Program-made: the position numbers and the translations under genes
The notes under the pieces: model-generated
The model's input: only the letters and a program-made list of their open reading frames with translations
The model's database searches: none
What the model was told of the DNA's origin: nothing
In this document: positions 29,136 through 45,976 of the stretch, piece by piece
Position numbering within the stretch: position 1 is the stretch's first letter
How the letters are laid out: the number at the start of each line of letters is the position of its first letter
NCBI GenBank assembly: GCA_002317355.1
Contig: DCJC01000056.1
Coordinates: 7,307 to 71,306, forward strand
Source: Prevotellaceae bacterium UBA1710
GTDB lineage: Bacteria; Bacteroidota; Bacteroidia; Bacteroidales; Bacteroidaceae
Reading direction: 5' to 3'
DNA: 64,000 nt

Positions 29136-32100
29136 TTATTTTACCACATAGTTGGAACCAGGAGTTCTTCCTGTAAAGACTGGTGAATACGTACAGGTTG
29201 CTGTTGCAATACCTGATGTGTAGTTACCTGTTCTTGCTACATAATATGATGTCTTTATCACATGAGTACCTTTTCTCATCATATTATAGCAGTATTCTGT
29301 CTTTGTGTCACGAACTATCTTGTAGGTTCCGTTGCTATAGCCAGAAAGTTGTTCTACAGGTTCAAGGCAAGCAGGACGATTATCTGTTACCGTTACGAAG
29401 TCGTAGTCGCGATCTGCTGTAATGGTAATAGTAACCTCTACCTTGTCTCCAACCTTAAGTTCCTTGCCATTGGTCTCTACTTTTCTTGTTATAGAAAGAC
29501 CTGTAGAAGATTCTGAACTTTCTGTTGCTGCCTGTTTATATTCGATAAATACATTTGCCCATGACTCGCCATTGGTATGTTTTGTGAAAGAAAGGACCTT
29601 GTCTTTTGATGTAATGTCCTTTGACGTCTTCACATAGCCAAGAGCAGATGTGTATTCTTGTGCCTCAAGTCTTGTCTTTCCTAATGCGATATCTGCAGGA
29701 ACGCCTTTCCTTAGTGATGTTGTTGTGCCTTGTGATGGGCAGAGGAAAGCGTAGATAGCATCAATAGCATTAATTGGAGTATCCCATGACTGGGTCCTCT
29801 TGCTTTGTAGGAGCCAACGCTTCATCTCAACAATCTCCTTTGCAGAATTATTACTGTCGATAAGTTTGAGCGCCTCTATTACTGAAACCTGAGTCGGAAT
29901 CTTATAATCACACCATGAGTATGCTGCACGCTTTGAGTCAAAGTATCTGCCGAGGTCATCACGATATACGGTATGCTCTTTTATACTCTTGATGAATTCT
30001 TCAGCCTTGCTCTTTTTACCTCCATAATAGAGAATTATTGCTGCCTCTGCCTTTGTCCTCATATCGTCATAACGACTTTCCTCATATACGAACTTGAGCA
30101 GTTTTTCGGCCTTACTGTTGCTGCTCAATTTTGTGCCATTAGCCTTTGCCAAAGCTCTGCAATATAGATAGTCGAATACATCAGAAGGCAGATACTTGTA
30201 TTCCTTCATGTCTGCATATCTTTCTCCGATCTCCTTGTCAAGGAATGTGCAGGCACGCTTTATCAGTTGTTCATTCTGCTTCTTTATCTTCTCGTCATTA
30301 GTCATGAGGTTAAGACGAAGAAGTGTCTTAAGAACATATACGGTCATGTATGAACTACCATCCATACCATACCACCAACTCCATGAACCATCACTATTCT
30401 GCAATGAAGAGAGACGCTCCAAGGCATCTGTATTGCGATAGTTCAAAGAGATAGAATCGAATAGTTCTGTCAATTCATTTGACTTCCAATCCTTAACGGC
30501 ATTCCTAATCTCTGGGTTTGAACGTGCAATTTCTGAGGCAATAGAGTTAGCATAATATGCTGCTGCAAGGCAGATAGCACATTGATCGTTTGCCTTTAAG
30601 ATTGATGGCAATGACTTTATCATCAGCCACTCTGGATTGTCTGTATATTCCACCTTGAGGTGCTTCTCATTTACAGAAGGCATAATACTCTTCAGATCAA
30701 ATTGCTTTGTGCCTGCCTCTGTAAGAATGAAAGTCTTGGTATTAACCATAAACTCTTTCTGTGAAAGTATAGGCAGGTCTTTTTGCTCGCCATCAGAGAA
30801 TGTACCCTCGTCGCTCTTGCCTGAAACGCTATAACGAACGATGATAGATTTATCCTCCTGATTCTTTGAGTCGTAAGAGAATGCTACTGCCTCTGTTTCA
30901 CCAGCCTTGATAGTTACTTTCTTGTTCTTTGTATAAAGAACCTTTTCTGTCTTGGCATCAAGTATAGTAAACTTAACCGTAGCATCAATATCCTTTTCTG
31001 TAAGGTTAGAAACAGAAGCTGGAATATCTGTAATGTCACCTTCGCGTAGGAATCGAGGTAAGCGAGGTTGAATCATCAGTTTCTTCTGAGCTACGACCTC
31101 ATCTGTCATTGTTCCGAATCTGATATCCTTATCGTGAGCAAATGCCATGAACTTCCATGTTGTTACGCTCTCAGGAAGTGTGAATGATAGTGTGGCAATA
31201 CCCTTGTCGTCAGTTCTCAACTGAGGCATGAAGAAAGCCGTCTCGTTGAGGTTTGTGCGGATTGGGACTTCTTCTTGGTTATCTTCTGTTTCTTCTAAGA
31301 CAGCATCATTGGCCGATTCTATATTCGCGAAACCAACAGCTACAACTGGTGCTTTTGCCATTTTGACCTCTGACAAAGAATGTGTCATAGATGATCCTGT
31401 AAGACTTCTTTTCTTTTGAACTCCGTATCCCATTACCACAAAATCATTCATGATGTTATACCCTGGATAATAAGGATCGAATGTAGAGAACTCGAACGAT
31501 TTGAGACTTGCTTTTTTGCTGTATTTTGAATACCAGATACTTGTATATGAATCTTGACGTGAAATCTTCCATTCATTTAAAGGGATATAAGGACTTGAAA
31601 TTCCATTGAAATGCCATGAGTGAGACTTCAACGCATCAAGTGACTTGTCGTAAAGTACTGCCATTACGTTTGCGTTGGCAGGTGTCCCGTTATTGTCCGT
31701 AATGGAAAGTTGCCATTCTTCTTTCTGTCCTGGTTCAAGCTTGTTACGGAATGTTGTCCAATTCAACTTGAGGGTTTTGTCTGGTAATGGTCGTTTAATG
31801 ACAGTACTGTGATTATACCATTTTCCGTTACGAACCCATGCTATTGTATAGCAGATACCATCGCCATACTCTTCCTTGTACTCAAATTTACGTGCTACAA
31901 CAGATGAGTCAAGCGTTAACGCTCCTGATTCAATAATTTTATTGTCGCAGAATATTGAATAAACAGCATACACATCTTTGTCACAAGTACCAAACTGGAT
32001 TGTAGCAGGGAATTCCTTACTTGTCTCATACCACCAATCGCGAGTTTCGGTTGCTGGAACCTTGTCCTCAAGGCTGAAGAGTACGAATTTCTTCTCTATA

Positions 32101-34493
32101 GTATCATTACTACAAATGGCCTTTATGAAATGGGAACCAGATGGGAGGTACATAGGAATCATATAGGACTTACCACAGACGGCTTTCTCCTGTTCTTTGC
32201 CGTCAATCTCTATAGACACTTCTCCTGCAATTTCTGTACCAGCATTATTCCTACGAGTGAATGTTATCTCAATAGGCTTTTCGCCTTTGAGATATTTATC
32301 CTTGATGTCGCTTGTGAGAGCTGTTGAACGATTGCTAAGAGGCATAGATAATTGCGCTTCGTGTGATTCTCCTGCAATATCGGTGACTACGGCTGTTGCC
32401 TTTATGTCGTAGAATTGTGGATGCCACCAATAGCGAAGAGGACTTATTCCATTGTCCTTGTTCTCCTTTGGAAGAATCATTGGCATTTTCATTACGAAAT
32501 TGCCTGAAGCATCTGTCTGTATTGTGTCCTCGAGTAGTATAGCACTATTGTTGTCCATACTTCTCCACCACCATGAGTTGTTACGCTGGATAGTATAGCA
32601 AACCTTGGCGTTGCTAACTGCTACACCACTATATGTTTTTGCTGTACCCTTAACCTCGATAGTATCACCATCCTTGTATTCAATCTCGGGTTTGCTAATA
32701 GTTACTTCGAAGGTAGGGCGCACATATTCCTCTACATTAATTGTGGTAGAAAATTTGTCGTTTGCTCTAATCGTGAATCTTCCGTTCTTTGTGTTCTCTG
32801 GGAGAACGAAGTCTGTTGTAGCTACGCCGAAATCGTCAGAGACTACCTTGACATTCGCAATCTCTTTGTATTCTGCATTCTTAAGGGTAACGGTTAGCTC
32901 CTTATTTGGAGCAACCTTTGTTTCTTTGTTACCAATCAGATTGTATGTAAGGAAAGATACGTGAACTGTTTGCCCAGGGCGATATAATGCACGATCGGTG
33001 AATCCTTTCACTTTGAAGGATACGCTATTGTCTTTTTTGTAATCATAGAAACTGGAGTAATATTGATAGTAAAGCATTGCTTTATCTGTATCGGTTGTTG
33101 CATAAACCGATCTACGACCAGTTTCCTTGATATGGTTATGGATGTATTCTCCTTTCTCGTTGGTTGATACTGTTTTTTTTGTATATTCTTCCAGTATATT
33201 TTCATCTAGATGTAATTGGGCACCCGCAACAGGTTGACCAGAGATGGCGTTTACTACGACATAGCGTACTTGTCGCTTGTCTTGTTGTTGGTAAATAACC
33301 TTAAGATCGCTTACCATGAGCATGATTTTCTCATCGCTCTTTATGTTCTTTCCATCGCATTTTACTTCTACGAGATATAGTCCAAGAGGCAGATTACCTA
33401 TTGATAGGCTATCTTCAAAGTACTCGTAATTTTCATGTTTAGCCAATTCTTTTGTGAGATTAATAACCTTGCCCTTCTGGAGGTATTTATTCATACTTGG
33501 CCATTCTGACTGATCGTCCCAGTCTAAGTCTTCGAATTTCTCGTGATAGGTTGGTAATATGGGAGTAATGGAAACATCGACATTTTTGATGTTTCTTACA
33601 TCTTCAAAAAGAAGTTTTGCCTCTTGTTGGGTGTTCAGAGTACTTTCTTTTGCCCTTATGTTGGTTCTTGGAGCAATAAGTTCGCTTTGCTCGTATTTTA
33701 GGAATTCTACATCTTGCCATTGAGGCCAACGCTTAATCGCTTCGTCAATCCATTCTATCTGTTTTTTTGCAACTTCATTCCTATCGCCTGTAAAGAAATT
33801 CAACTTTCTTGAGGCAATAGCACCACACTCATTAAGATCGCCATAAATAGCAATTAATGAGTCGGCTTTTTTCATTAAATCATTTTTGTCGTATTTCCAT
33901 CTGTAGCTGTCAAGCATTTTTGCAGCTGCTATACAAGCTGCTTTTCTATTCCCTTTCTCGGAATAGAAACGTGCTAATGGCTCATAGTCGTTCTGAAATT
34001 CTGCTATTACGCTGATCAGGTCGTGGCAGAAATACTTACTGTCTTGGCCTTTCTTTACCAACGGAACATATTTCAGAGCTCCATTTTCCTTTGTGAGTTC
34101 GTTGACGAGTTCTAGATTTGTGTGATAGAGAAGACTATCTACCAACTTTGCTTTATCACCCCTAGGAATGAGTTTATAGATGCATCCTGCTACAGGATCA
34201 ACCTTTGATATGTTTCTGTATTTTTCCTTAAGGCGCTCTCGCATAACGGCAATAGAGTCGTCGGAGAGTTGTTTTAGTACAATGGCCTCTTTATAGAGTG
34301 CAGAAATAAGATGACCATACAGCTTTTCCTTTTCTGCCTTTTCTTCTATCGTTTTGAGATGAGAAAGGGCAGTTTGAGGATAGTCATTATCCATAGCTTT
34401 CTCATACTTCTTCCAGAGTGAAGTGTAGTCTCCCTGTGCTGACAATCCTAATGCCAGCATAGAGAGTAGCAATATGGTCAATAGTTTCTTCAT
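29136..34493 (-). CDS. bacterial alpha-2-macroglobulin family protein
   Basis: FTDRALYRPGQ, EEYVRPTFEV, RTNLNETAFF.PQL, PRFLREGD, LQNSDGSWSW. Confidence 0.93.
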   Translation of the reverse strand: MKKLLTILLLSMLALGLSAQGDYTSLWKKYEKAMDNDYPQTALSHLKTIEEKAEKEKLYGHLISALYKEAIVLKQLSDDSIAVMRERLKEKYRNISKVDPVAGCIYKLIPRGDKAKLVDSLLYHTNLELVNELTKENGALKYVPLVKKGQDSKYFCHDLISVIAEFQNDYEPLARFYSEKGNRKAACIAAAKMLDSYRWKYDKNDLMKKADSLIAIYGDLNECGAIASRKLNFFTGDRNEVAKKQIEWIDEAIKRWPQWQDVEFLKYEQSELIAPRTNIRAKESTLNTQQEAKLLFEDVRNIKNVDVSITPILPTYHEKFEDLDWDDQSEWPSMNKYLQKGKVINLTKELAKHENYEYFEDSLSIGNLPLGLYLVEVKCDGKNIKSDEKIMLMVSDLKVIYQQQDKRQVRYVVVNAISGQPVAGAQLHLDENILEEYTKKTVSTNEKGEYIHNHIKETGRRSVYATTDTDKAMLYYQYYSSFYDYKKDNSVSFKVKGFTDRALYRPGQTVHVSFLTYNLIGNKETKVAPNKELTVTLKNAEYKEIANVKVVSDDFGVATTDFVLPENTKNGRFTIRANDKFSTTINVEEYVRPTFEVTISKPEIEYKDGDTIEVKGTAKTYSGVAVSNAKVCYTIQRNNSWWWRSMDNNSAILLEDTIQTDASGNFVMKMPMILPKENKDNGISPLRYWWHPQFYDIKATAVVTDIAGESHEAQLSMPLSNRSTALTSDIKDKYLKGEKPIEITFTRRNNAGTEIAGEVSIEIDGKEQEKAVCGKSYMIPMYLPSGSHFIKAICSNDTIEKKFVLFSLEDKVPATETRDWWYETSKEFPATIQFGTCDKDVYAVYSIFCDNKIIESGALTLDSSVVARKFEYKEEYGDGICYTIAWVRNGKWYNHSTVIKRPLPDKTLKLNWTTFRNKLEPGQKEEWQLSITDNNGTPANANVMAVLYDKSLDALKSHSWHFNGISSPYIPLNEWKISRQDSYTSIWYSKYSKKASLKSFEFSTFDPYYPGYNIMNDFVVMGYGVQKKRSLTGSSMTHSLSEVKMAKAPVVAVGFANIESANDAVLEETEDNQEEVPIRTNLNETAFFMPQLRTDDKGIATLSFTLPESVTTWKFMAFAHDKDIRFGTMTDEVVAQKKLMIQPRLPRFLREGDITDIPASVSNLTEKDIDATVKFTILDAKTEKVLYTKNKKVTIKAGETEAVAFSYDSKNQEDKSIIVRYSVSGKSDEGTFSDGEQKDLPILSQKEFMVNTKTFILTEAGTKQFDLKSIMPSVNEKHLKVEYTDNPEWLMIKSLPSILKANDQCAICLAAAYYANSIASEIARSNPEIRNAVKDWKSNELTELFDSISLNYRNTDALERLSSLQNSDGSWSWWYGMDGSSYMTVYVLKTLLRLNLMTNDEKIKKQNEQLIKRACTFLDKEIGERYADMKEYKYLPSDVFDYLYCRALAKANGTKLSSNSKAEKLLKFVYEESRYDDMRTKAEAAIILYYGGKKSKAEEFIKSIKEHTVYRDDLGRYFDSKRAAYSWCDYKIPTQVSVIEALKLIDSNNSAKEIVEMKRWLLQSKRTQSWDTPINAIDAIYAFLCPSQGTTTSLRKGVPADIALGKTRLEAQEYTSALGYVKTSKDITSKDKVLSFTKHTNGESWANVFIEYKQAATESSESSTGLSITRKVETNGKELKVGDKVEVTITITADRDYDFVTVTDNRPACLEPVEQLSGYSNGTYKIVRDTKTEYCYNMMRKGTHVIKTSYYVARTGNYTSGIATATCTYSPVFTGRTPGSNYVVK

Positions 34494-39614: not shown

Positions 39615-39974
39615 TTATTTTCTTCTTTCTTTAGTTTTTAGAATTATTGATGTCAATAATTTGATGAGTTCACCACAATCTGCGTTTATCGATTCAAATT
39701 CTGTATTTGTTAAAAGACCGAGATTGAGTAGTAGGTCGATCCAGAATTTTGTTTCGTTGGCTTCTTTTCTCGCAATTGAGAGTTTGTGGATAAAATCATC
39801 TGTTGATTCGGCAAACTCTGACTCTGCTCTATTGGCTCCGATAGAAGTTCCAGATCTAAGAATTTGTTTGCTTATTATAAACTCTTTCTTTTCTTCCGTG
39901 AGATATTTGTAAAGCTTATATATCCTTACTGCGAAGAACATGCATTTCTCTTCAAGAAGGTTGTCTTTTGACAT
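39615..39974 (-). CDS. four-helix-bundle protein (TIGR02436 / 23S rRNA IVP, Avd-like fold)
   Basis: FAVRI.KLY, SKQILRSGTSIGAN..E, DFIHKL.IA.KEA.ET..W. Confidence 0.93.
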   Translation of the reverse strand: MSKDNLLEEKCMFFAVRIYKLYKYLTEEKKEFIISKQILRSGTSIGANRAESEFAESTDDFIHKLSIARKEANETKFWIDLLLNLGLLTNTEFESINADCGELIKLLTSIILKTKERRK

Positions 39975-40850: not shown

Positions 40851-40902
40851 AACAAAAAAAAGATGAACGAGCACCATTATTTGTTGTAATGATACTCGTT
40901 CA
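40851..40902 (-). terminator. intrinsic terminator after small peptide 1
   Basis: TGAACGAG...CTCGTTCA stem followed by a long U-tract on the minus strand. Confidence 0.7.
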
Positions 40903-40940
40903 ACTATAGTTCGTTTTTTATAGAATGATTCTAACCCTTA

Positions 40941-41084
40941 TTAGTTAGCGTCTTCCACTTCTTCATTTGAGAAACCACCGCCGAATGGATCTGTTGGCTT
41001 GTCTGGCTGGCTTACCATGAGAGGTGCAACCGCACTTACGAATCGAGGACGGAAGTATGGAGCTTCGTATGCTTTCTTTTTCAT
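40941..41084 (-). CDS. unannotated 47-aa YxxP peptide MKKKAYEAPYFRPRFVSAVAPLMVSQPDKPTDPFGGGFSNEEVEDAN
   Basis: hand-translated; ATG after an A-rich leader 27 nt behind the upstream stop; TAA TAA stop followed by a terminator; same motif as 43090-43245. Confidence 0.8.
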   Translation of the reverse strand: MKKKAYEAPYFRPRFVSAVAPLMVSQPDKPTDPFGGGFSNEEVEDAN

Positions 41085-41111
41085 ATTTTTGTTCCTTTCT
41101 TTTTCTTTAAA

Positions 41112-42824
41112 TTAATATGTAACCTTAGATGTCTCTACTGTACCATCAGCGTATGTCTTCTTAACGAGGTTCATACCCTTAACTGGCTCGTTAGAAACCT
41201 GACCGTTTACAGAGATATACTGAACTGAAACAACGTTGCTGTTTGTGATGATACCATCAATGTCTGTAGCCTCTTCACCGTCGAAATTTGGTGTGATGAT
41301 GTCAATTATAGAGCCTTCTTCGTCCATGAATTCGATGGTTGCATTGTCAATCTTTGCACTTGCGATTGTTCCTGCGTAGTTGAAGTAGCAACGACCTGGC
41401 TTAAGTGTTGATGTCTGCTTAAGTTTGCCAAATACACCTGCTGTGCTTACAACGTATGCATTTGCGAGAGTGCTGCTGTTGCCTGAGATTGGCTGGAATG
41501 TTCCAATGAACTGTGCATTGTTGAAAGTTCCTGACTTTGGAGCGCCAGTTGGTTGAACAGTAGCGTTTGTCTCGTTAATCTCAGTAGCATCGGTGCTGAT
41601 TTGAATAAGGTAAGGAACGTTAGCGGACATTGTTTCTGCTAATGTGCATGAAATCTTATTCTCTGCAGGGTCATATCCTGTAAATCTTCCCTGTCTTTCG
41701 AATAACAGACCTGTGTTCTCTGATTTGAATGGCAATACAAGCGTGCCGTATGTTCCAGCGCTGAAATTACGCTCGTAGGTTGCTTCATCTGCTGTGAATG
41801 CTTTGCTTACGTATATCTCTTCACCATTGTCTTTTATGAGGTATTTGTCGCTTAGTGCTCCGTATACGACATTTGTTCCTGCTGCTGTGGTTGTTTTGGT
41901 AAAGTATGCAAGCTTATTTGCTGGCACATCAACGTTAACTTCGCCGAGAATGGTGGCTCCTGTGAAATCGAAGTTTCTTTCACCGCGTGCTACTGCTTCT
42001 GCGATACGCTTGTTATTTACAATGCCTGTAACCATTCCAATTTTTCCGCTAGTTGTAACATTCCATGCGATATCATTTGCAATCTCGGTTGGAGTGTAAA
42101 TGTCATAGCAGCTTGTCAGTTCTTGTTTCTCGTAGATACCTCCATTTGTATTCTCGATAAGACGATAGACGGCAATCGCTACTTGGTAAGGTTCATTTGT
42201 TTCTGGATTGATTACTGGCTGACCACCGATAACCAAGTCTCCCATCTCAAAGTCTTTGTAGTAATAGAGATCAGGATGGATGTTAACTTTTCTGGTGTCT
42301 AATTTTCCAGAAATTTCATCTCCTTTGAATAGCTTGTCACTGAATTTGCTCTCTTCTCTAGCCTTTAGGCAGACTTTTTCGTATATTTTGTATTTTTCGG
42401 TGTTTTTATTTATGACATACTCACTAGTTCCGTTTTGTAGAGGAGATGTTCCAAAATCGGAAAGAGAAGTTGCGAAATCCTCTATGAGTGTTGTTTGAGG
42501 ACGTGGGGTGGCACTCTCCCAAGACAAGATCTGACCTGGTTTTACCTTGCTTGCATCATTTATTGCAATAGCTTTTACGTTTACACGTCTTTGCTGATTA
42601 GAAATGTATTTGTAAGTCTCATCCTGAATGACAATACCATCGTTTGCAGAATATGTGATATTGACAGGTCTTTCGATTATAACATCGCCTTCTTCTTCAA
42701 TCTCAACATTATTTGATCCTTCCAAAATCTGGTAGGTGATACCAGAACGATTTACCGTTTGTTGTGCAAACGCAAAACCTGCACTTGCCAACATTGTTGT
42801 TAAGAGTAAAATTTTACTTTTCAT
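41112..42824 (-). CDS. secreted protein of unknown function with a Prevotella-type T9SS C-terminal domain
   Basis: signal peptide AFA-Q; TLVLPF/ANVPYLI/FIGTF pre-CTD domain; ATDIDGI..YISVNG..KGMNLVK..DG..SKVTY. Confidence 0.8.
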   Translation of the reverse strand: MKSKILLLTTMLASAGFAFAQQTVNRSGITYQILEGSNNVEIEEEGDVIIERPVNITYSANDGIVIQDETYKYISNQQRRVNVKAIAINDASKVKPGQILSWESATPRPQTTLIEDFATSLSDFGTSPLQNGTSEYVINKNTEKYKIYEKVCLKAREESKFSDKLFKGDEISGKLDTRKVNIHPDLYYYKDFEMGDLVIGGQPVINPETNEPYQVAIAVYRLIENTNGGIYEKQELTSCYDIYTPTEIANDIAWNVTTSGKIGMVTGIVNNKRIAEAVARGERNFDFTGATILGEVNVDVPANKLAYFTKTTTAAGTNVVYGALSDKYLIKDNGEEIYVSKAFTADEATYERNFSAGTYGTLVLPFKSENTGLLFERQGRFTGYDPAENKISCTLAETMSANVPYLIQISTDATEINETNATVQPTGAPKSGTFNNAQFIGTFQPISGNSSTLANAYVVSTAGVFGKLKQTSTLKPGRCYFNYAGTIASAKIDNATIEFMDEEGSIIDIITPNFDGEEATDIDGIITNSNVVSVQYISVNGQVSNEPVKGMNLVKKTYADGTVETSKVTY

Positions 42825-42920
42825 ATTCGTATACTTTTTTATTATTTTCTTAAATAGTTAATAGATACATCTTGCCCCTCCCAATGTTTTCATGGGGGTG
42901 TAACAAAGTAAATTTGTGTG

Positions 42921-42952
42921 CAAAATTATGAAATTTCTTTGTAACGACCAAA
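42921..42952 (-). promoter_or_regulatory. primary-sigma promoter of cargo/peptide unit 1
   Basis: TTTG-N20-TAATTTTG. Confidence 0.8.
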
Positions 42953-43036
42953 TATTTAGAGAGAAAAAAGGGAAAAATTAACAAAATAACTATTTGGCAT
43001 CAAGATAAATGCTTGAAATTGATTAGTATTATACGG

Positions 43037-43070
43037 AAAAAGAAGAGAAAGCATAACTTTCTCTTCTTTT
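43037..43070. terminator. intrinsic terminator after small peptide 2
   Basis: AAAAGAAGAGAAAG-CATAA-CTTTCTCTTCTTTT. Confidence 0.75.
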
Positions 43071-43089
43071 CCCTAGATGATTTTCTTAA

Positions 43090-43245
43090 CTATTCTTCAT
43101 CCTCGTCATTATCAAACCATTTAGTTGGTTTTGATGATAGTGGGTCATCACCGTCGATTTCGTCGATGTATGAAACGTCAGCGAGGAGAGATGTCGATAA
43201 GAAAGATTCTACTTCGATCTCTGGTGAGAAATATTCCTTTTTCAT
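43090..43245 (-). CDS. unannotated 51-aa YxxP peptide MKKEYFSPEIEVESFLSTSLLADVSYIDEIDGDDPLSSKPTKWFDNDEDEE
   Basis: hand-translated; ATG 8 nt after the upstream TAA; followed by a terminator; same motif as 40941-41084. Confidence 0.82.
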   Translation of the reverse strand: MKKEYFSPEIEVESFLSTSLLADVSYIDEIDGDDPLSSKPTKWFDNDEDEE

Positions 43246-43253
43246 TTTTATAT

Positions 43254-45284
43254 TTATTTTATAATTTTCTTTGTTGTGCCATCAGCATACTTCACGAAGT
43301 TGATGCCCTTAGCAAGGTCGTTGAGCTTGTGACCGTTGAGATCATAGATGCCAACAACAATGTCAGAACCTGTTGACTCAATTGTGTTGATGCCTGTTGT
43401 CTCACCGTCCTCTTCACAGATGATAGAAATCTTTGAGGCGTCGATAGAAGTTTCCTTGCTTGCGTTTCTGTGGTTGATCTGAAGTCCCCAACGATAACCC
43501 TTGAGCTTGTCAGTTACTTTTGTTGCTCTGTAACCACCATTTGACATAGCGTAATAGTTGTTTGCTACAAGTTCAGGACCTTCCATTGTGCTATAGAAGC
43601 CAGTGAAGACGAATGTTGTGTTTACAGAAGAACAATCAAGCGTATTTGTCTCTGCCTTCTTGAGAACAACATCAGAAACTTCAATCTCCTGTGCTGTAGT
43701 ACTTGGGTTGAGTGCCTTGATTACGCATGGTGTATGAGCCTTGAGAGTTTTGCCGTCCTTGACTTTGAGTACCTCAATGAGAGTGCGGTCAACTGTACCA
43801 TTGTCATCATCGTCGTACTGATGGATGTTGTTGATGATGGCAATTTCGAAGCTTTCTTTCCAATCCTCATATTCCATGTCGAATGGAAGATAGAGAGGCT
43901 GCCATTTATTGTCTTTATATGTACGTGAATAGATAACCTTCTTCACAGACTTGTCAATGCTGTTTGTGTAGTCAACACCATCAATCAATGTGATGATGTC
44001 ATCCTGTGCACCATTATATTCTACATCATCAACAATATAATCCTTGTAGTTGTTCCAGTTTTTTGCATTCTTGAATTCGTCAGCTAAGCCTTGGAAGACG
44101 TGAATCTTTATTCCTGGGATAGCCAAGAATGGATTCTTTGCACCTAACTCAATCTTGTCAGATGTCGTATGTATGTAATAATTGAAGACAAGTGTGTTTG
44201 TAAATGCATAATCATTGATGTTTGTTATGCTCTCAGGGAAGGATACTTCCTGAATGGTGCTTCCGATGTTGCCGAAAGCAGACTGGTCAATAATCTGAAC
44301 GCCTTCATTTATTTCTATAGAAGTGAGCTTTGTGTTTGCAAAGGCTGCACTTGAGACGGTTTTGACACTTCCTGGAATTGTAATAGAGGTAAGTCCTGTT
44401 CCAAAGAATGCCTTTGGGCTGATTTTTGTTAGGCTCTGTGGAAGTGAAATTGTTGCCAGAGATGCGCATCCATAAAATGCTTCTGTAGCGATGCTTGTCG
44501 TTGAATTGTGGAGCTTAACATTCTTGAGCTTGTTACAATTGTAGAAAATGCCCTGTGGAACTTCGTGGATGTTCTTAGGGAGTGTGAAATCTGTAGCGAG
44601 TTTACTGCAATTGTAGAAAGCGTAGTTGCCAATTGATGTGATGTTTGCGGGGATATTGATGCTTTCCAAATTGCTGCAGTTGCCAAATGCGTAATTGCCA
44701 ATTGACTCAAGGGAAGCTGGAAGGGTAATTTTTGTGATCTTTGTACAACCATCAAAAGCGTAGTCGCCAATTCCTGTAATTGTTGTAGGGACGGTGTATT
44801 GGCCATTTGTGAATGTCTTTCCAAGTGGCATAGCGATAAGCTCACTTGAATTGCTGAAAAGGATGCCGTCTTTTGAATAGAAATAATTGTTGTCTTCTTC
44901 TACTTCTATTACTTTCAAATTAGAAGATCTAGAAAACACCTGCTGTCCAATTGTAGCGATAGAATTTGGGATGATAACCTTTGTTAATTCTGGGCAATTA
45001 TAGAATGCATAATCCTGAATGCCGACTACAGGCACAGTCTGACCTTCATAAACTATTGTGGCAGGTATTGTGACGATGCCATCATATGCACCAGCACCAC
45101 TTGCACTACCAGTTTCAGACATGTTTTTGTTTGTTATGGTTGCTAAACCATTCTCTATGAAATAGTAGTACAATCCAATTCTTCCACTCCATTTTCCCTC
45201 TAGGACATTAGGTACGCCTGCCCAAGAAGCGCATGTAACTGCGAGCATGAAGATAATGCTCAGAATTCTGCTTGATTTAATCAT
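43254..45284 (-). CDS. BspA-type leucine-rich repeat (LRR_5) surface protein with T9SS C-terminal domain
   Basis: repeats of IG.YAF.NC..L..I.IP; TTGINTIE..IYDLNG..KGINFVK..DG..KKIIK CTD; -7 box TAACTTTG at 45487-45494. Confidence 0.9.
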   Translation of the reverse strand: MIKSSRILSIIFMLAVTCASWAGVPNVLEGKWSGRIGLYYYFIENGLATITNKNMSETGSASGAGAYDGIVTIPATIVYEGQTVPVVGIQDYAFYNCPELTKVIIPNSIATIGQQVFSRSSNLKVIEVEEDNNYFYSKDGILFSNSSELIAMPLGKTFTNGQYTVPTTITGIGDYAFDGCTKITKITLPASLESIGNYAFGNCSNLESINIPANITSIGNYAFYNCSKLATDFTLPKNIHEVPQGIFYNCNKLKNVKLHNSTTSIATEAFYGCASLATISLPQSLTKISPKAFFGTGLTSITIPGSVKTVSSAAFANTKLTSIEINEGVQIIDQSAFGNIGSTIQEVSFPESITNINDYAFTNTLVFNYYIHTTSDKIELGAKNPFLAIPGIKIHVFQGLADEFKNAKNWNNYKDYIVDDVEYNGAQDDIITLIDGVDYTNSIDKSVKKVIYSRTYKDNKWQPLYLPFDMEYEDWKESFEIAIINNIHQYDDDDNGTVDRTLIEVLKVKDGKTLKAHTPCVIKALNPSTTAQEIEVSDVVLKKAETNTLDCSSVNTTFVFTGFYSTMEGPELVANNYYAMSNGGYRATKVTDKLKGYRWGLQINHRNASKETSIDASKISIICEEDGETTGINTIESTGSDIVVGIYDLNGHKLNDLAKGINFVKYADGTTKKIIK

Positions 45285-45737
45285 AATCGTTCTTTGACTG
45301 ATTTAGCTATCCCTGAATAATCAGCACACAATGTTTAAAAGTTGTTGTTTATAGTCGTTGGGTACTCTACACACTTTCGTTGCAAACCGTCTTTCTCTTT
45401 ACTTGTTTCCTGATTTCCCGCAATCCTCAAGGTGTAAACGCTATCTTTTTTGTCTTAATGTATTTTCGTTAATACGAATTTGGAGGCAAAGTTAAGATTT
45501 TTTTTTCAAAAAGAGAAATGTTAAAGCGGTTTTTTGCTAAAAAGTAACATTTTTTTATAATTCAATGGAAAAACGATGAGTTTTGAGGAAATGGGGAAAG
45601 GAAATCTAGATTTTGGAAAGTAAAATTGGAGTTTTTTTGTGGAAAGTAAATTGGGGGTAAATTAAATCAGTAAATTACGTAGGCGGCATTCGCCGCTGGG
45701 AAATTAAAAAAGAAGAATAAATATTTTCAGAATTAAT

Positions 45738-45976
45738 TTAATGTCAGTTCGACGAATTGATTATTTGGCAGCAAGCTGCTTTTAACTGACAAAAATTACC
45801 AATCTTCACAATCTTTACAATCTTTATTTTTTTTGAAACTTTGGACTCCGCATCCCAATATTTGTTGGGAAAAGATTGGTAAGATTGGGACTCCACGTAG
45901 TGCCTGAGCTATGCGAAGAATTATTGTCAGTTCAAGCACCAAAGGTGCAGATTCGAATAATTCATTAGGACTGATG
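45738..45976. repeat. composite inverted-repeat cassette (TGTCAGTT hairpin modules flanking inverted CAATCTT 9-mer arrays)
   Basis: TGTCAGTT..GCAGCAAGCTGC..AACTGACA at 45742-45791, related inverted module from 45919; CAATCTT x3 opposite AAGATTG x2. Confidence 0.65.

Follow-up and report, generated by a model that had tools for sequence, protein, structure and literature searches.

Two tandem cargo-peptide units

The window analysed here is a 64,000-nucleotide stretch of DNA from Prevotellaceae bacterium UBA1710, part of contig DCJC01000056.1 (C47) of a genome (G000) that comprises 3.28 Mb in 85 contigs and is 89% complete. On the minus strand of the window two putative transcription units lie in tandem, each with a promoter-like element, a gene for a secreted type IX secretion system (T9SS) cargo protein, a small open reading frame (ORF) and a terminator, all of which are found where the original prediction, an earlier reading of this sequence, had placed them (Table 1). 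Both cargos have a hydrophobic N-terminus and end in a short C-terminal domain (CTD). The leucine-rich repeats (LRRs) of the 676-aa cargo 1 match Pfam LRR_5 (E 2e-70), the 570-aa cargo 2 has no match in Pfam or NCBIfam, and neither small peptide has a family in these libraries. Peptide 1, with the motif YFSP, starts 8 nt past the stop codon of the LRR gene, and peptide 2, with YEAP, starts 27 nt past that of the 570-aa gene. The sequence TAnnTTTG, which we take to be the Bacteroidetes-type promoter element, is found in this window at 45494 and 42928.

Table 1 Features of the two tandem units, in positions of the window.
Feature	Position	Strand	Remark
-7 promoter-like element of unit 1, TAACTTTG	45487..45494	-	RNA-library contig starts at 45456
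Cargo 1, 676 aa: signal peptide, BspA-type LRR, unnamed pre-CTD domain, short T9SS CTD	43254..45284	-	
Pre-CTD domain of cargo 1 (aa 444-630), unnamed, ~185 aa, all-beta	43395..43955	-	AlphaFold2 (AF2) model
Short CTD of cargo 1, predicted cleavage T|GI	43254..43394	-	own-genome CTD profile
Peptide 1, 51 aa: MKKEYFSP leader, Ser at Tyr+20, acidic core ending WFD..EDEE	43090..43245	-	
18-bp hairpin closing unit 1	43035..43073	-	-25.1 kcal/mol
-7 element of unit 2, TAATTTTG, promoter-like	42921..42928	-	TTTG 20 nt upstream
Cargo 2, 570 aa: signal peptide, unknown passenger, pre-CTD domain (about 41265-41825), short CTD (41112-41264)	41112..42824	-	
Peptide 2, 47 aa: MKKKAYEAP leader, Ser at Tyr+19, acidic core	40941..41084	-	divergent family member
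Intrinsic terminator of unit 2	40864..40902	-	

Contigs from metatranscriptome libraries of two studies join cargo and peptide in both units (X17, 40946-42809; X15, 43105-45456) and leave positions 42871-43037, between the units, uncovered, whereas one X9 contig, from a run whose type is not on record, crosses this gap. These RNA runs consist of contigs alone, which carry no strand, start or level and offer uncovered gaps as the only control for silence, so their coverage is a weak hint that fits two transcription units. A further contig (X16 contig 8, at 41244-42763) is the transcript of a related strain in which the ends of unit 2 are kept and the middle is largely different, a pattern consistent with passenger swapping in this unit.

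A family of small peptides with a common leader

A regular-expression scan of the source genome returned 114 small ORFs, 19 of which were picked by eye as a family; a profile built from these 19 sets them more than four orders of magnitude apart from other ORFs, a separation that is circular. When the profile was made of leaders from other genomes only, 17 of the 19 were the top 17 among 28,974 small ORFs starting with Met (peptide 1 at rank 6, E 1e-4) and one further member took rank 21, a test that is only partly independent because a profile derived from the source genome had served to detect those outside leaders in the first place. Peptide 2 fell outside the top 32 of the same ranking and is a weak member, but its membership is backed by the syntenic counterpart in a second genome, G182, which stands behind the orthologous cargo, has FRPR in common with peptide 2 and itself scores E 1e-5. 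The original prediction had suggested a scan with a profile of the two window peptides alone; this brought up no other member below E 1. A homolog search with the peptide alignment returned 34 proteins, of which the three named ones are all 'hypothetical'.

The general build, taken over a set of 75 peptides, is MKKxYxxP followed by a strand of alternating hydrophobicity, a pair of hydrophobic residues, a Ser and a core rich in Gly, Asp and Glu, where the Y and P of YxxP are fixed by the way the set was selected. Position Tyr+5 is I, M, C, A, V, T, L or F in all 75 (I and F in the window peptides). A Ser stands at Tyr+19 or Tyr+20 in 61 of the 75, and in 14 of the 17 that were found domain-first compared with 16% expected, although this count is partly circular in that the profile contains that column. 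The cores are 15-50 aa long, acidic (mean charge -5.5) and hypervariable, and 65 of 75 peptides have a Trp or Phe among their final 12 residues. A single layout had been claimed for both window peptides; their likeness is confined to the leader, and aligned with each other the two score low. By eye, neither peptide has a Sec signal, as had also been stated, yet an 11-residue hydrophobic window of peptide 2 (1.95) comes close to the signal of cargo 2 (2.09).

The same two units occur in G182 between ilvE and trmB, with the peptides 10 and 23 nt past the cargo genes, and unit 1 is kept in a third genome, G003. Between G000 and G182 the flanking proteins are 93-97% identical, whereas parts of the cargos are 35-57% and the peptides 33-39% identical; cargo and peptide therefore turn over fast while the layout stays. 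Compared with their counterparts in G182 the window peptides are too diverged for dN/dS, with substitutions at saturation (pS 0.82 for peptide 2), and three other pairs, chosen at 50% identity or more and thus biased low, give 0.14 for the leader and 0.37 for the core. Scans of metagenomes gave no useful locus of the family. A panel of 150 genomes at the level of the order gave matches in only 11, of which one or two are doubtful, so either the profile is narrow or the family is patchy.

Peptide genes adjoin one class of T9SS cargo and pilin-like lipoproteins

Sixteen of the 19 peptide genes in the source genome lie behind T9SS cargo genes, beginning -4 to 41 nt from the end of a short-CTD gene; two lie ahead of genes for pilin-like lipoproteins, and one is second in a tandem. 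The T9SS machinery is present in this genome (SprA, E 2e-221), and CTDs were assigned with an own-genome profile, library scans having given no match at cut-off. Among its 40 CTD genes, a peptide follows 16 of the 21 that encode an unnamed all-beta domain of ~180 aa ahead of the CTD and none of the 19 that do not (Fisher p 3e-7), where the profile of this pre-CTD domain was seeded from the 16 peptide-linked cargos and, with whole contigs left out, regains 13 of the 16 at E<0.05, including that of cargo 2 at E 7e-6. In other genomes the best loci lie behind such cargo in 23 of 29 cases within the genus and 17 of 29 within the family, and ahead of lipoproteins in 4 of 29 and 2 of 29, respectively; the remainder are orphans, stand ahead of other exported proteins or sit within an enzyme cluster.

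The family is large, unnamed and located directly behind genes for secreted surface proteins in gut Prevotella-type bacteria. Its enrichment behind domain-bearing CTD genes agrees with the original proposal of a cargo-coupled small-protein family whose homologs are placed non-randomly with respect to secreted-protein genes, but narrows it: the tie is to cargo with the unnamed pre-CTD domain and to pilin-like lipoproteins, not to T9SS cargo generally. We also note a 16-codon ORF with an MKKYKKP start (C85:69391-69501 of the source genome), upstream of a domain-bearing cargo gene, that is possibly a decayed family member.

The AF2 model of the pre-CTD domain of cargo 1 is all-beta (pLDDT 88.7). 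The domain matches 24,602 clusters at 50% identity (E<=0.001), some of them with up to 8 matched stretches. In fold searches Foldseek returned nothing at E<=0.001, the best Z was 2.9 (rmsd 3.7-4.1, 63-70 aligned), and the first half gave weak cupin-like rows. The two domains of the window are 29% identical, and many in the alignment are at 11-22%. After cleavage of the CTD at T|GI, in the manner reported for short CTDs (PMC11969387), the domain would be anchor-proximal. In distant Bacteroidales families, five of six peptide-linked cargos share another unnamed module before a type A CTD, GWNLxGNPY ... IPPMQAFWV ... DSEK (L060, L273, L275, L276, L277), and homology between this module and the Prevotella-type domain is not supported (best E 0.12; hhalign probability 0.2).

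The second class of neighbours consists of lipoproteins with a lipobox, a first strand and a pilin-type TR site. On weak matches they look like type V pilins: a profile matches 3sy6 (BF1861) at E 0.006, the top Foldseek rows for a lipoprotein model (pLDDT 59) are Bacteroides fimbrial proteins at E about 0.001-0.008, and 1 of 15 reaches the Pfam Mfa_like_1 cut-off. The TR site and the fimbrial matches, together with a by-eye resemblance in some peptide-cargo pairs and a linker strand that has the lowest pLDDT, could suggest that the C-terminal [AS]K..W/F-D/E segment of the peptides serves as a donor strand for the cargo linker strand or for the cleaved first strand of type V pilins. Over 76 pairs, however, cognate combinations score 15.5, non-cognate ones 14.9 (p 0.07) and shuffled linkers 14.4; these scores do not support such mimicry, and we consider it very improbable.

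Candidate processing genes are encoded elsewhere in the genome

The original prediction had called for a genome search for PqqD, the type of protein that provides the recognition element (RRE) of peptides that are made on ribosomes and modified after translation (RiPPs). One protein exceeded the cut-off (PF05402, 62 bits), and it ends an operon in the order sigma-like gene, small exported protein, HprK-like kinase, SpI-like peptidase and PqqD/RRE, the last three at C72:49075-50918. The kinase has weak HprK-related matches (E 1e-4 to 3e-4), with Walker A and LxNDD kept, and the peptidase matches TIGR02228 (E 8e-5), with its Ser, His and Asp motifs kept, both matches falling below curated cut-offs. 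Two PDB matches only were obtained for the RRE, TfuB1 as the best and LppB (9x8z, E 0.047); in the weak alignment to 9x8z, the LppB residues that grip Tyr and Pro (N33, Y60, E61 and D70) are identical. The source genome further encodes, at C16:338-1993, an ABC exporter orthologous to exporters in the operons of relatives (38% identity, E 2e-103), as well as five NTP_transf_5 proteins (L121-L125), each in a different polysaccharide-synthesis locus beside glycosyltransferase-type genes.

A lasso-type maturation of the peptides would accord with the YxxP of their leaders and with the best PDB match of the RRE, TfuB1, which is a lasso RRE. The lasso B2 peptidase PF13471 has no match in this 89% complete genome, a macrolactam cyclase is absent from the C72 operon (two PF00733 genes with frames of 573 and 360 aa lie elsewhere) and from the cis clusters read in relatives, and the acidic, hypervariable cores of 15-50 aa likewise speak against lasso precursors, which we regard as extremely improbable. 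The pathway instead resembles that of linear polyphosphorylated peptides (LPPs).

A similar precursor-free operon is present in the 29 other kinase loci of the genus that were read. It usually follows an RpoD-like sigma-factor gene (L099:116-979 and sister loci), which suggests housekeeping-level expression; in G000 and G182 the sigma-like gene is shorter, at 204-208 aa. Between sigma-factor gene and kinase, nearly all of these loci have a small exported protein with the motif FGF..SFNDSTVYF (L020:189-629, which is C72:48588-49028 of the source genome, and L093-L120). The two copies scanned have no family bar a weak Pfam match (E 0.001), and the protein may be a further component of the pathway.

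In most genus loci read, the genes for kinase, peptidase and RRE follow a sigma-70 gene, RpoD-like in the single copy scanned, and this small exported protein, with no exporter in cis. Such a position would suit peptides that never leave the cytoplasm and there report on the expression of surface genes, with kinase, peptidase and RRE as a regulatory circuit. We find this improbable, given that eight relatives (G205, G180, G212, G141, G106, G157, G266 and G334) have an ABC exporter within the operon, that G000 retains an ortholog of it, and that hypervariable cores better fit a partner outside the cell.

Peptides and enzymes occur together across genomes

In a panel of 100 genomes of the genus, a deeper profile finds peptides and kinase together in 85, neither in 9, peptides only in 3 and the kinase only in 3 (Fisher p 2e-8; 79, 9, 3 and 9 with the first profile), p-values of this kind overstating the association because kin genomes are not independent. 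Kinase-positive genomes have a median of 6 peptides and kinase-lacking ones a median of 0; the latter lack PqqD in 12 of 12 cases and keep SprA in 10 of 10 tested. In a set of genomes selected for their low number of peptides, a peptide accompanies 13 of 24 domain genes where the kinase is present and 1 of 7 where it is absent (p 0.09). The family panel (n=90) has peptides in 62 of 80 RRE-positive and 0 of 10 RRE-negative genomes. Divided by SprA, they are found in 58 of 65 genomes with it and 4 of 25 without; by both genes, in 58 of 62 with RRE and SprA, 0 of 3 with SprA only and 4 of 18 with RRE only. Loci were read in three of these last four (G281, G329 and G266; the fourth is G263). In G281 and G329 the peptides stand ahead of pilin-like lipoproteins, and in G266 a peptide ends a complete enzyme operon. 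In genus g10, the lone SprA-positive genome has 15 peptides and its six sisters have none.

In several relatives precursor and enzymes lie in cis (with letters as for the lpp genes: K kinase, S SpI-like peptidase, B RRE, D exporter, N nucleotidyltransferase, A precursor). The leader profile matches a small ORF in the complete clusters of G266, where it follows K-S-B-N-D (K-S-B-N-D-A), and G334 (B-N-D-K-S-A-A). In G157, where it does so as well, a complete cis cluster stands directly behind a T9SS cargo gene (cargo-B-A-K-S-D), and clusters that are partial as far as read occur in G115 (cargo-B-A-K), G093 (cargo-B-A) and G159 (A-K-S). Exporter and nucleotidyltransferase are in cis in G266, G334 and G106, and in G000 only in trans.

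These distributions bear on the two roles that the original prediction had offered. Unprocessed peptides acting as a chaperone or partner of T9SS cargo, with YxxP a coincidence, would accord with the tight linkage to one domain class and the likely co-transcription. Yet genomes that have lost kinase and RRE have lost the peptides too but retain SprA and domain-bearing cargo (1 of 7 domain genes with a peptide in kinase-lacking genomes), the same leader occurs within the enzyme operon of the SprA-free G266, and a peptide without a clear Sec signal would have no access to a Sec-exported cargo. On the first of these grounds the role is disfavoured, and it appears quite unlikely. The other role, that of dispersed RiPP-like precursors matured in trans, is upheld by the RRE, kinase and peptidase found elsewhere in the genome, by their co-occurrence with the peptides and by the cis operons of relatives.

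A proposed pathway

Based on the observed gene layout, peptide family, enzyme operon, co-occurrence and cis clusters in relatives, we propose that the peptides are probably RRE-guided precursors that undergo processing in trans and have a functional link to the surface protein encoded next to them. The products of the two small genes of the window are likely precursors in an LPP pathway of a Bacteroidales form, and for peptide 1 we infer an LppA-like precursor. By analogy with the LPP of Paenibacillus, the single RRE would bind the YxxPx-hydrophobic leader, the HprK-like kinase would phosphorylate the Ser at Tyr+19/20 and the SpI-like peptidase would cut off the leader of ~22 residues; on this analogy all three steps in trans, from binding by the RRE through phosphorylation of the serine to loss of the leader, are very probable. 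The ABC protein would export the acidic core, a step that we hold to be somewhat probable on the same grounds.

A nucleotidyltransferase would then join the phosphoserine to a surface polysaccharide, and the pre-CTD domain of the co-expressed protein would bind the variable core as its cognate docking tag. This final part is speculative and rather doubtful; it was chosen because it would explain the joint requirement for an RRE and a surface protein, the link to a single domain class, the rapid turnover of cargo and peptide together and the location of the nucleotidyltransferases. Since the anchor of such cargo is already a glycan, according to the available passages of PMC11969387, the peptide is not needed as a sortase acceptor. 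Each surface protein would likely be supplied with its own partner tag. On a still more tentative reading, a RiPP pathway has been turned by Bacteroidales into a modular code for surface assembly, in which each adhesin or enzyme gene has its own peptide barcode. One shared RRE-kinase-peptidase set would activate the barcode on its serine, export and linkage to polysaccharide would follow, and the new all-beta domain (>24,000 clusters, sometimes in tandem arrays) would dock the cognate protein in the manner of cohesin and dockerin with a modified peptide.

Several points weigh against the proposal of trans-processed, cargo-tied precursors, in addition to the circularity of the serine count and the kinship of the genomes: (i) Processing, phosphorylation, export and binding are all deduced from genes, and the five nucleotidyltransferases would be linked to the peptides by analogy. 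(ii) The pre-CTD domain is found without a peptide in 5 of 21 genes of G000 and in 11 of 24 in the kinase-positive genomes chosen for few peptides. (iii) Peptides also precede lipoproteins, whose N-terminus has no detectable likeness to the pre-CTD domain. (iv) With flanks of 1.5 kb, no precursor is found in the C72 operon or the 29 other genus kinase loci, and no exporter or nucleotidyltransferase was recognised in those 29. (v) G223 (92% complete) has 7 peptides, six of them behind domain cargo, and neither kinase nor RRE was found in it; G183 and G193, with 1-2 peptides, are likewise peptide-only genomes.

The many domain genes that lack a peptide, the two unrelated types of neighbour and the cargo-free cis clusters of G266 and G334 could instead indicate LPP-like products with a role of their own (signal, surface decoration or antagonism) and no contact with the neighbour, adjacency reflecting co-regulation or copying of a 3' cassette. 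Similarities of domain and core are weakly correlated (Mantel rho 0.10, p 0.002, 76 pairs), as would arise from shared descent. We judge this explanation to be unlikely: no peptide follows any of the 19 domain-free CTD genes, the linkage outlasts divergence of the domain (29% and 11-22% identity) and change of passenger, and in genus g10 the peptides are confined to the SprA-positive genome.

Other features of the window

Upstream of unit 1, at ~45630-45960, lies an intergenic repeat; it recurs at dozens of places in G182, the query region having 75 matches in all, and resembles a dispersed element of the REP (repetitive extragenic palindromic) type. A 119-aa gene at 39615-39974, flanked by trmB and a topoisomerase gene, is absent from the syntenic place in G182, and its product presumably resembles four-helix-bundle / 23S rRNA IVP proteins. 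The gene at 29136-34493 encodes a bacterial alpha-2-macroglobulin of 1785 aa (Pfam A2M, MG2, bMG10).

Comparison with known systems

The LPP cluster of Paenibacillus alginolyticus reads lppA-K-B-S-D-N; its kinase polyphosphorylates Ser3 of the core and its peptidase requires the RRE, as described in the available passages of PMC13381572, on which the statements about LPP that follow also draw. Common to that system and the one described here are an HprK-like kinase, a discrete RRE, an SpI-like peptidase, an MsbA-like exporter and NTP_transf_5 with no cyclase, a YxxP leader in a conserved N-terminus followed by a variable core with a Ser early in it, and an association of pathway genes with polysaccharide loci. 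The YxxPx-hydrophobic motif, the Tyr-selecting N33/D70 pocket of the RRE and the placement of kinase and peptidase beside it are all found here. The differences are in arrangement and leader: LPP clusters hold 1-3 precursors, whereas here up to 33 precursor matches are dispersed over a genome, each beside a surface-protein gene and all served by one operon. Leaders of the G000 type depart from the consensus YxxPxVLxHQxIxFETxxS, with His at +8 in 9 of 75 and FET mostly absent. Two further points count against a close correspondence: the Ser of LppA is at Tyr+18, making the spacing here (Tyr+19/20) 1-2 residues longer, and the leader profile matches no PDB chain at E<=10, the crystallised LppA leader included. 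Because neither the leader consensus nor a precursor in cis is found, the present system is not a plain member of the LPP class.

In 2026 that class was called Bacillota-restricted and its role unknown, and a supplement listed, with no precursor assigned, five SpI-RRE loci from Bacteroidota (PMC13381572). Our analysis would extend it to gut Bacteroidales in an unusual layout, with many dispersed precursors and one serving operon, and proposes substrates for an orphan kinase-peptidase-PqqD operon whose kinase occurs in 88 of 100 genomes of the genus. The connection that it draws of a RiPP pathway with type IX secretion and pilin-like proteins renders the role of LPPs directly testable, and it points out a very large unnamed domain family that lacks a clear solved fold.

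Paeninodin-type phosphorylated lasso peptides also share an RRE, an HprK-like kinase, a nucleotidyltransferase and a [Y/W]xxP leader with our system, according to the same passages of PMC13381572, but here no B2 peptidase was found, the clusters read have no cyclase, and the leader residue is Tyr, not Trp.

With regard to the cargos, short-CTD T9SS proteins with Ile at +2 and C-terminal glycan anchoring are described for Prevotella intermedia in the available passages of PMC11969387, which make no mention of a pre-CTD domain class or a linked peptide. Both window cargos correspond to this type, with a signal peptide and a CTD of 46-51 aa (43-55 aa in the type) that bears the cleavage motif, with Ile in position +2 of the predicted cut. 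The likeness to type V pilins or fimbrillins (BF1861, 3sy6) concerns the neighbours of other family members, not the window peptides. T9SS cargo of type B has a cognate PorP/SprF partner, a beta-barrel outer-membrane protein, encoded alongside it. The arrangement described here is the same in that a candidate cognate partner gene adjoins that of the secreted protein, and differs in that the partner would be a peptide of ~55 aa with an RRE leader.

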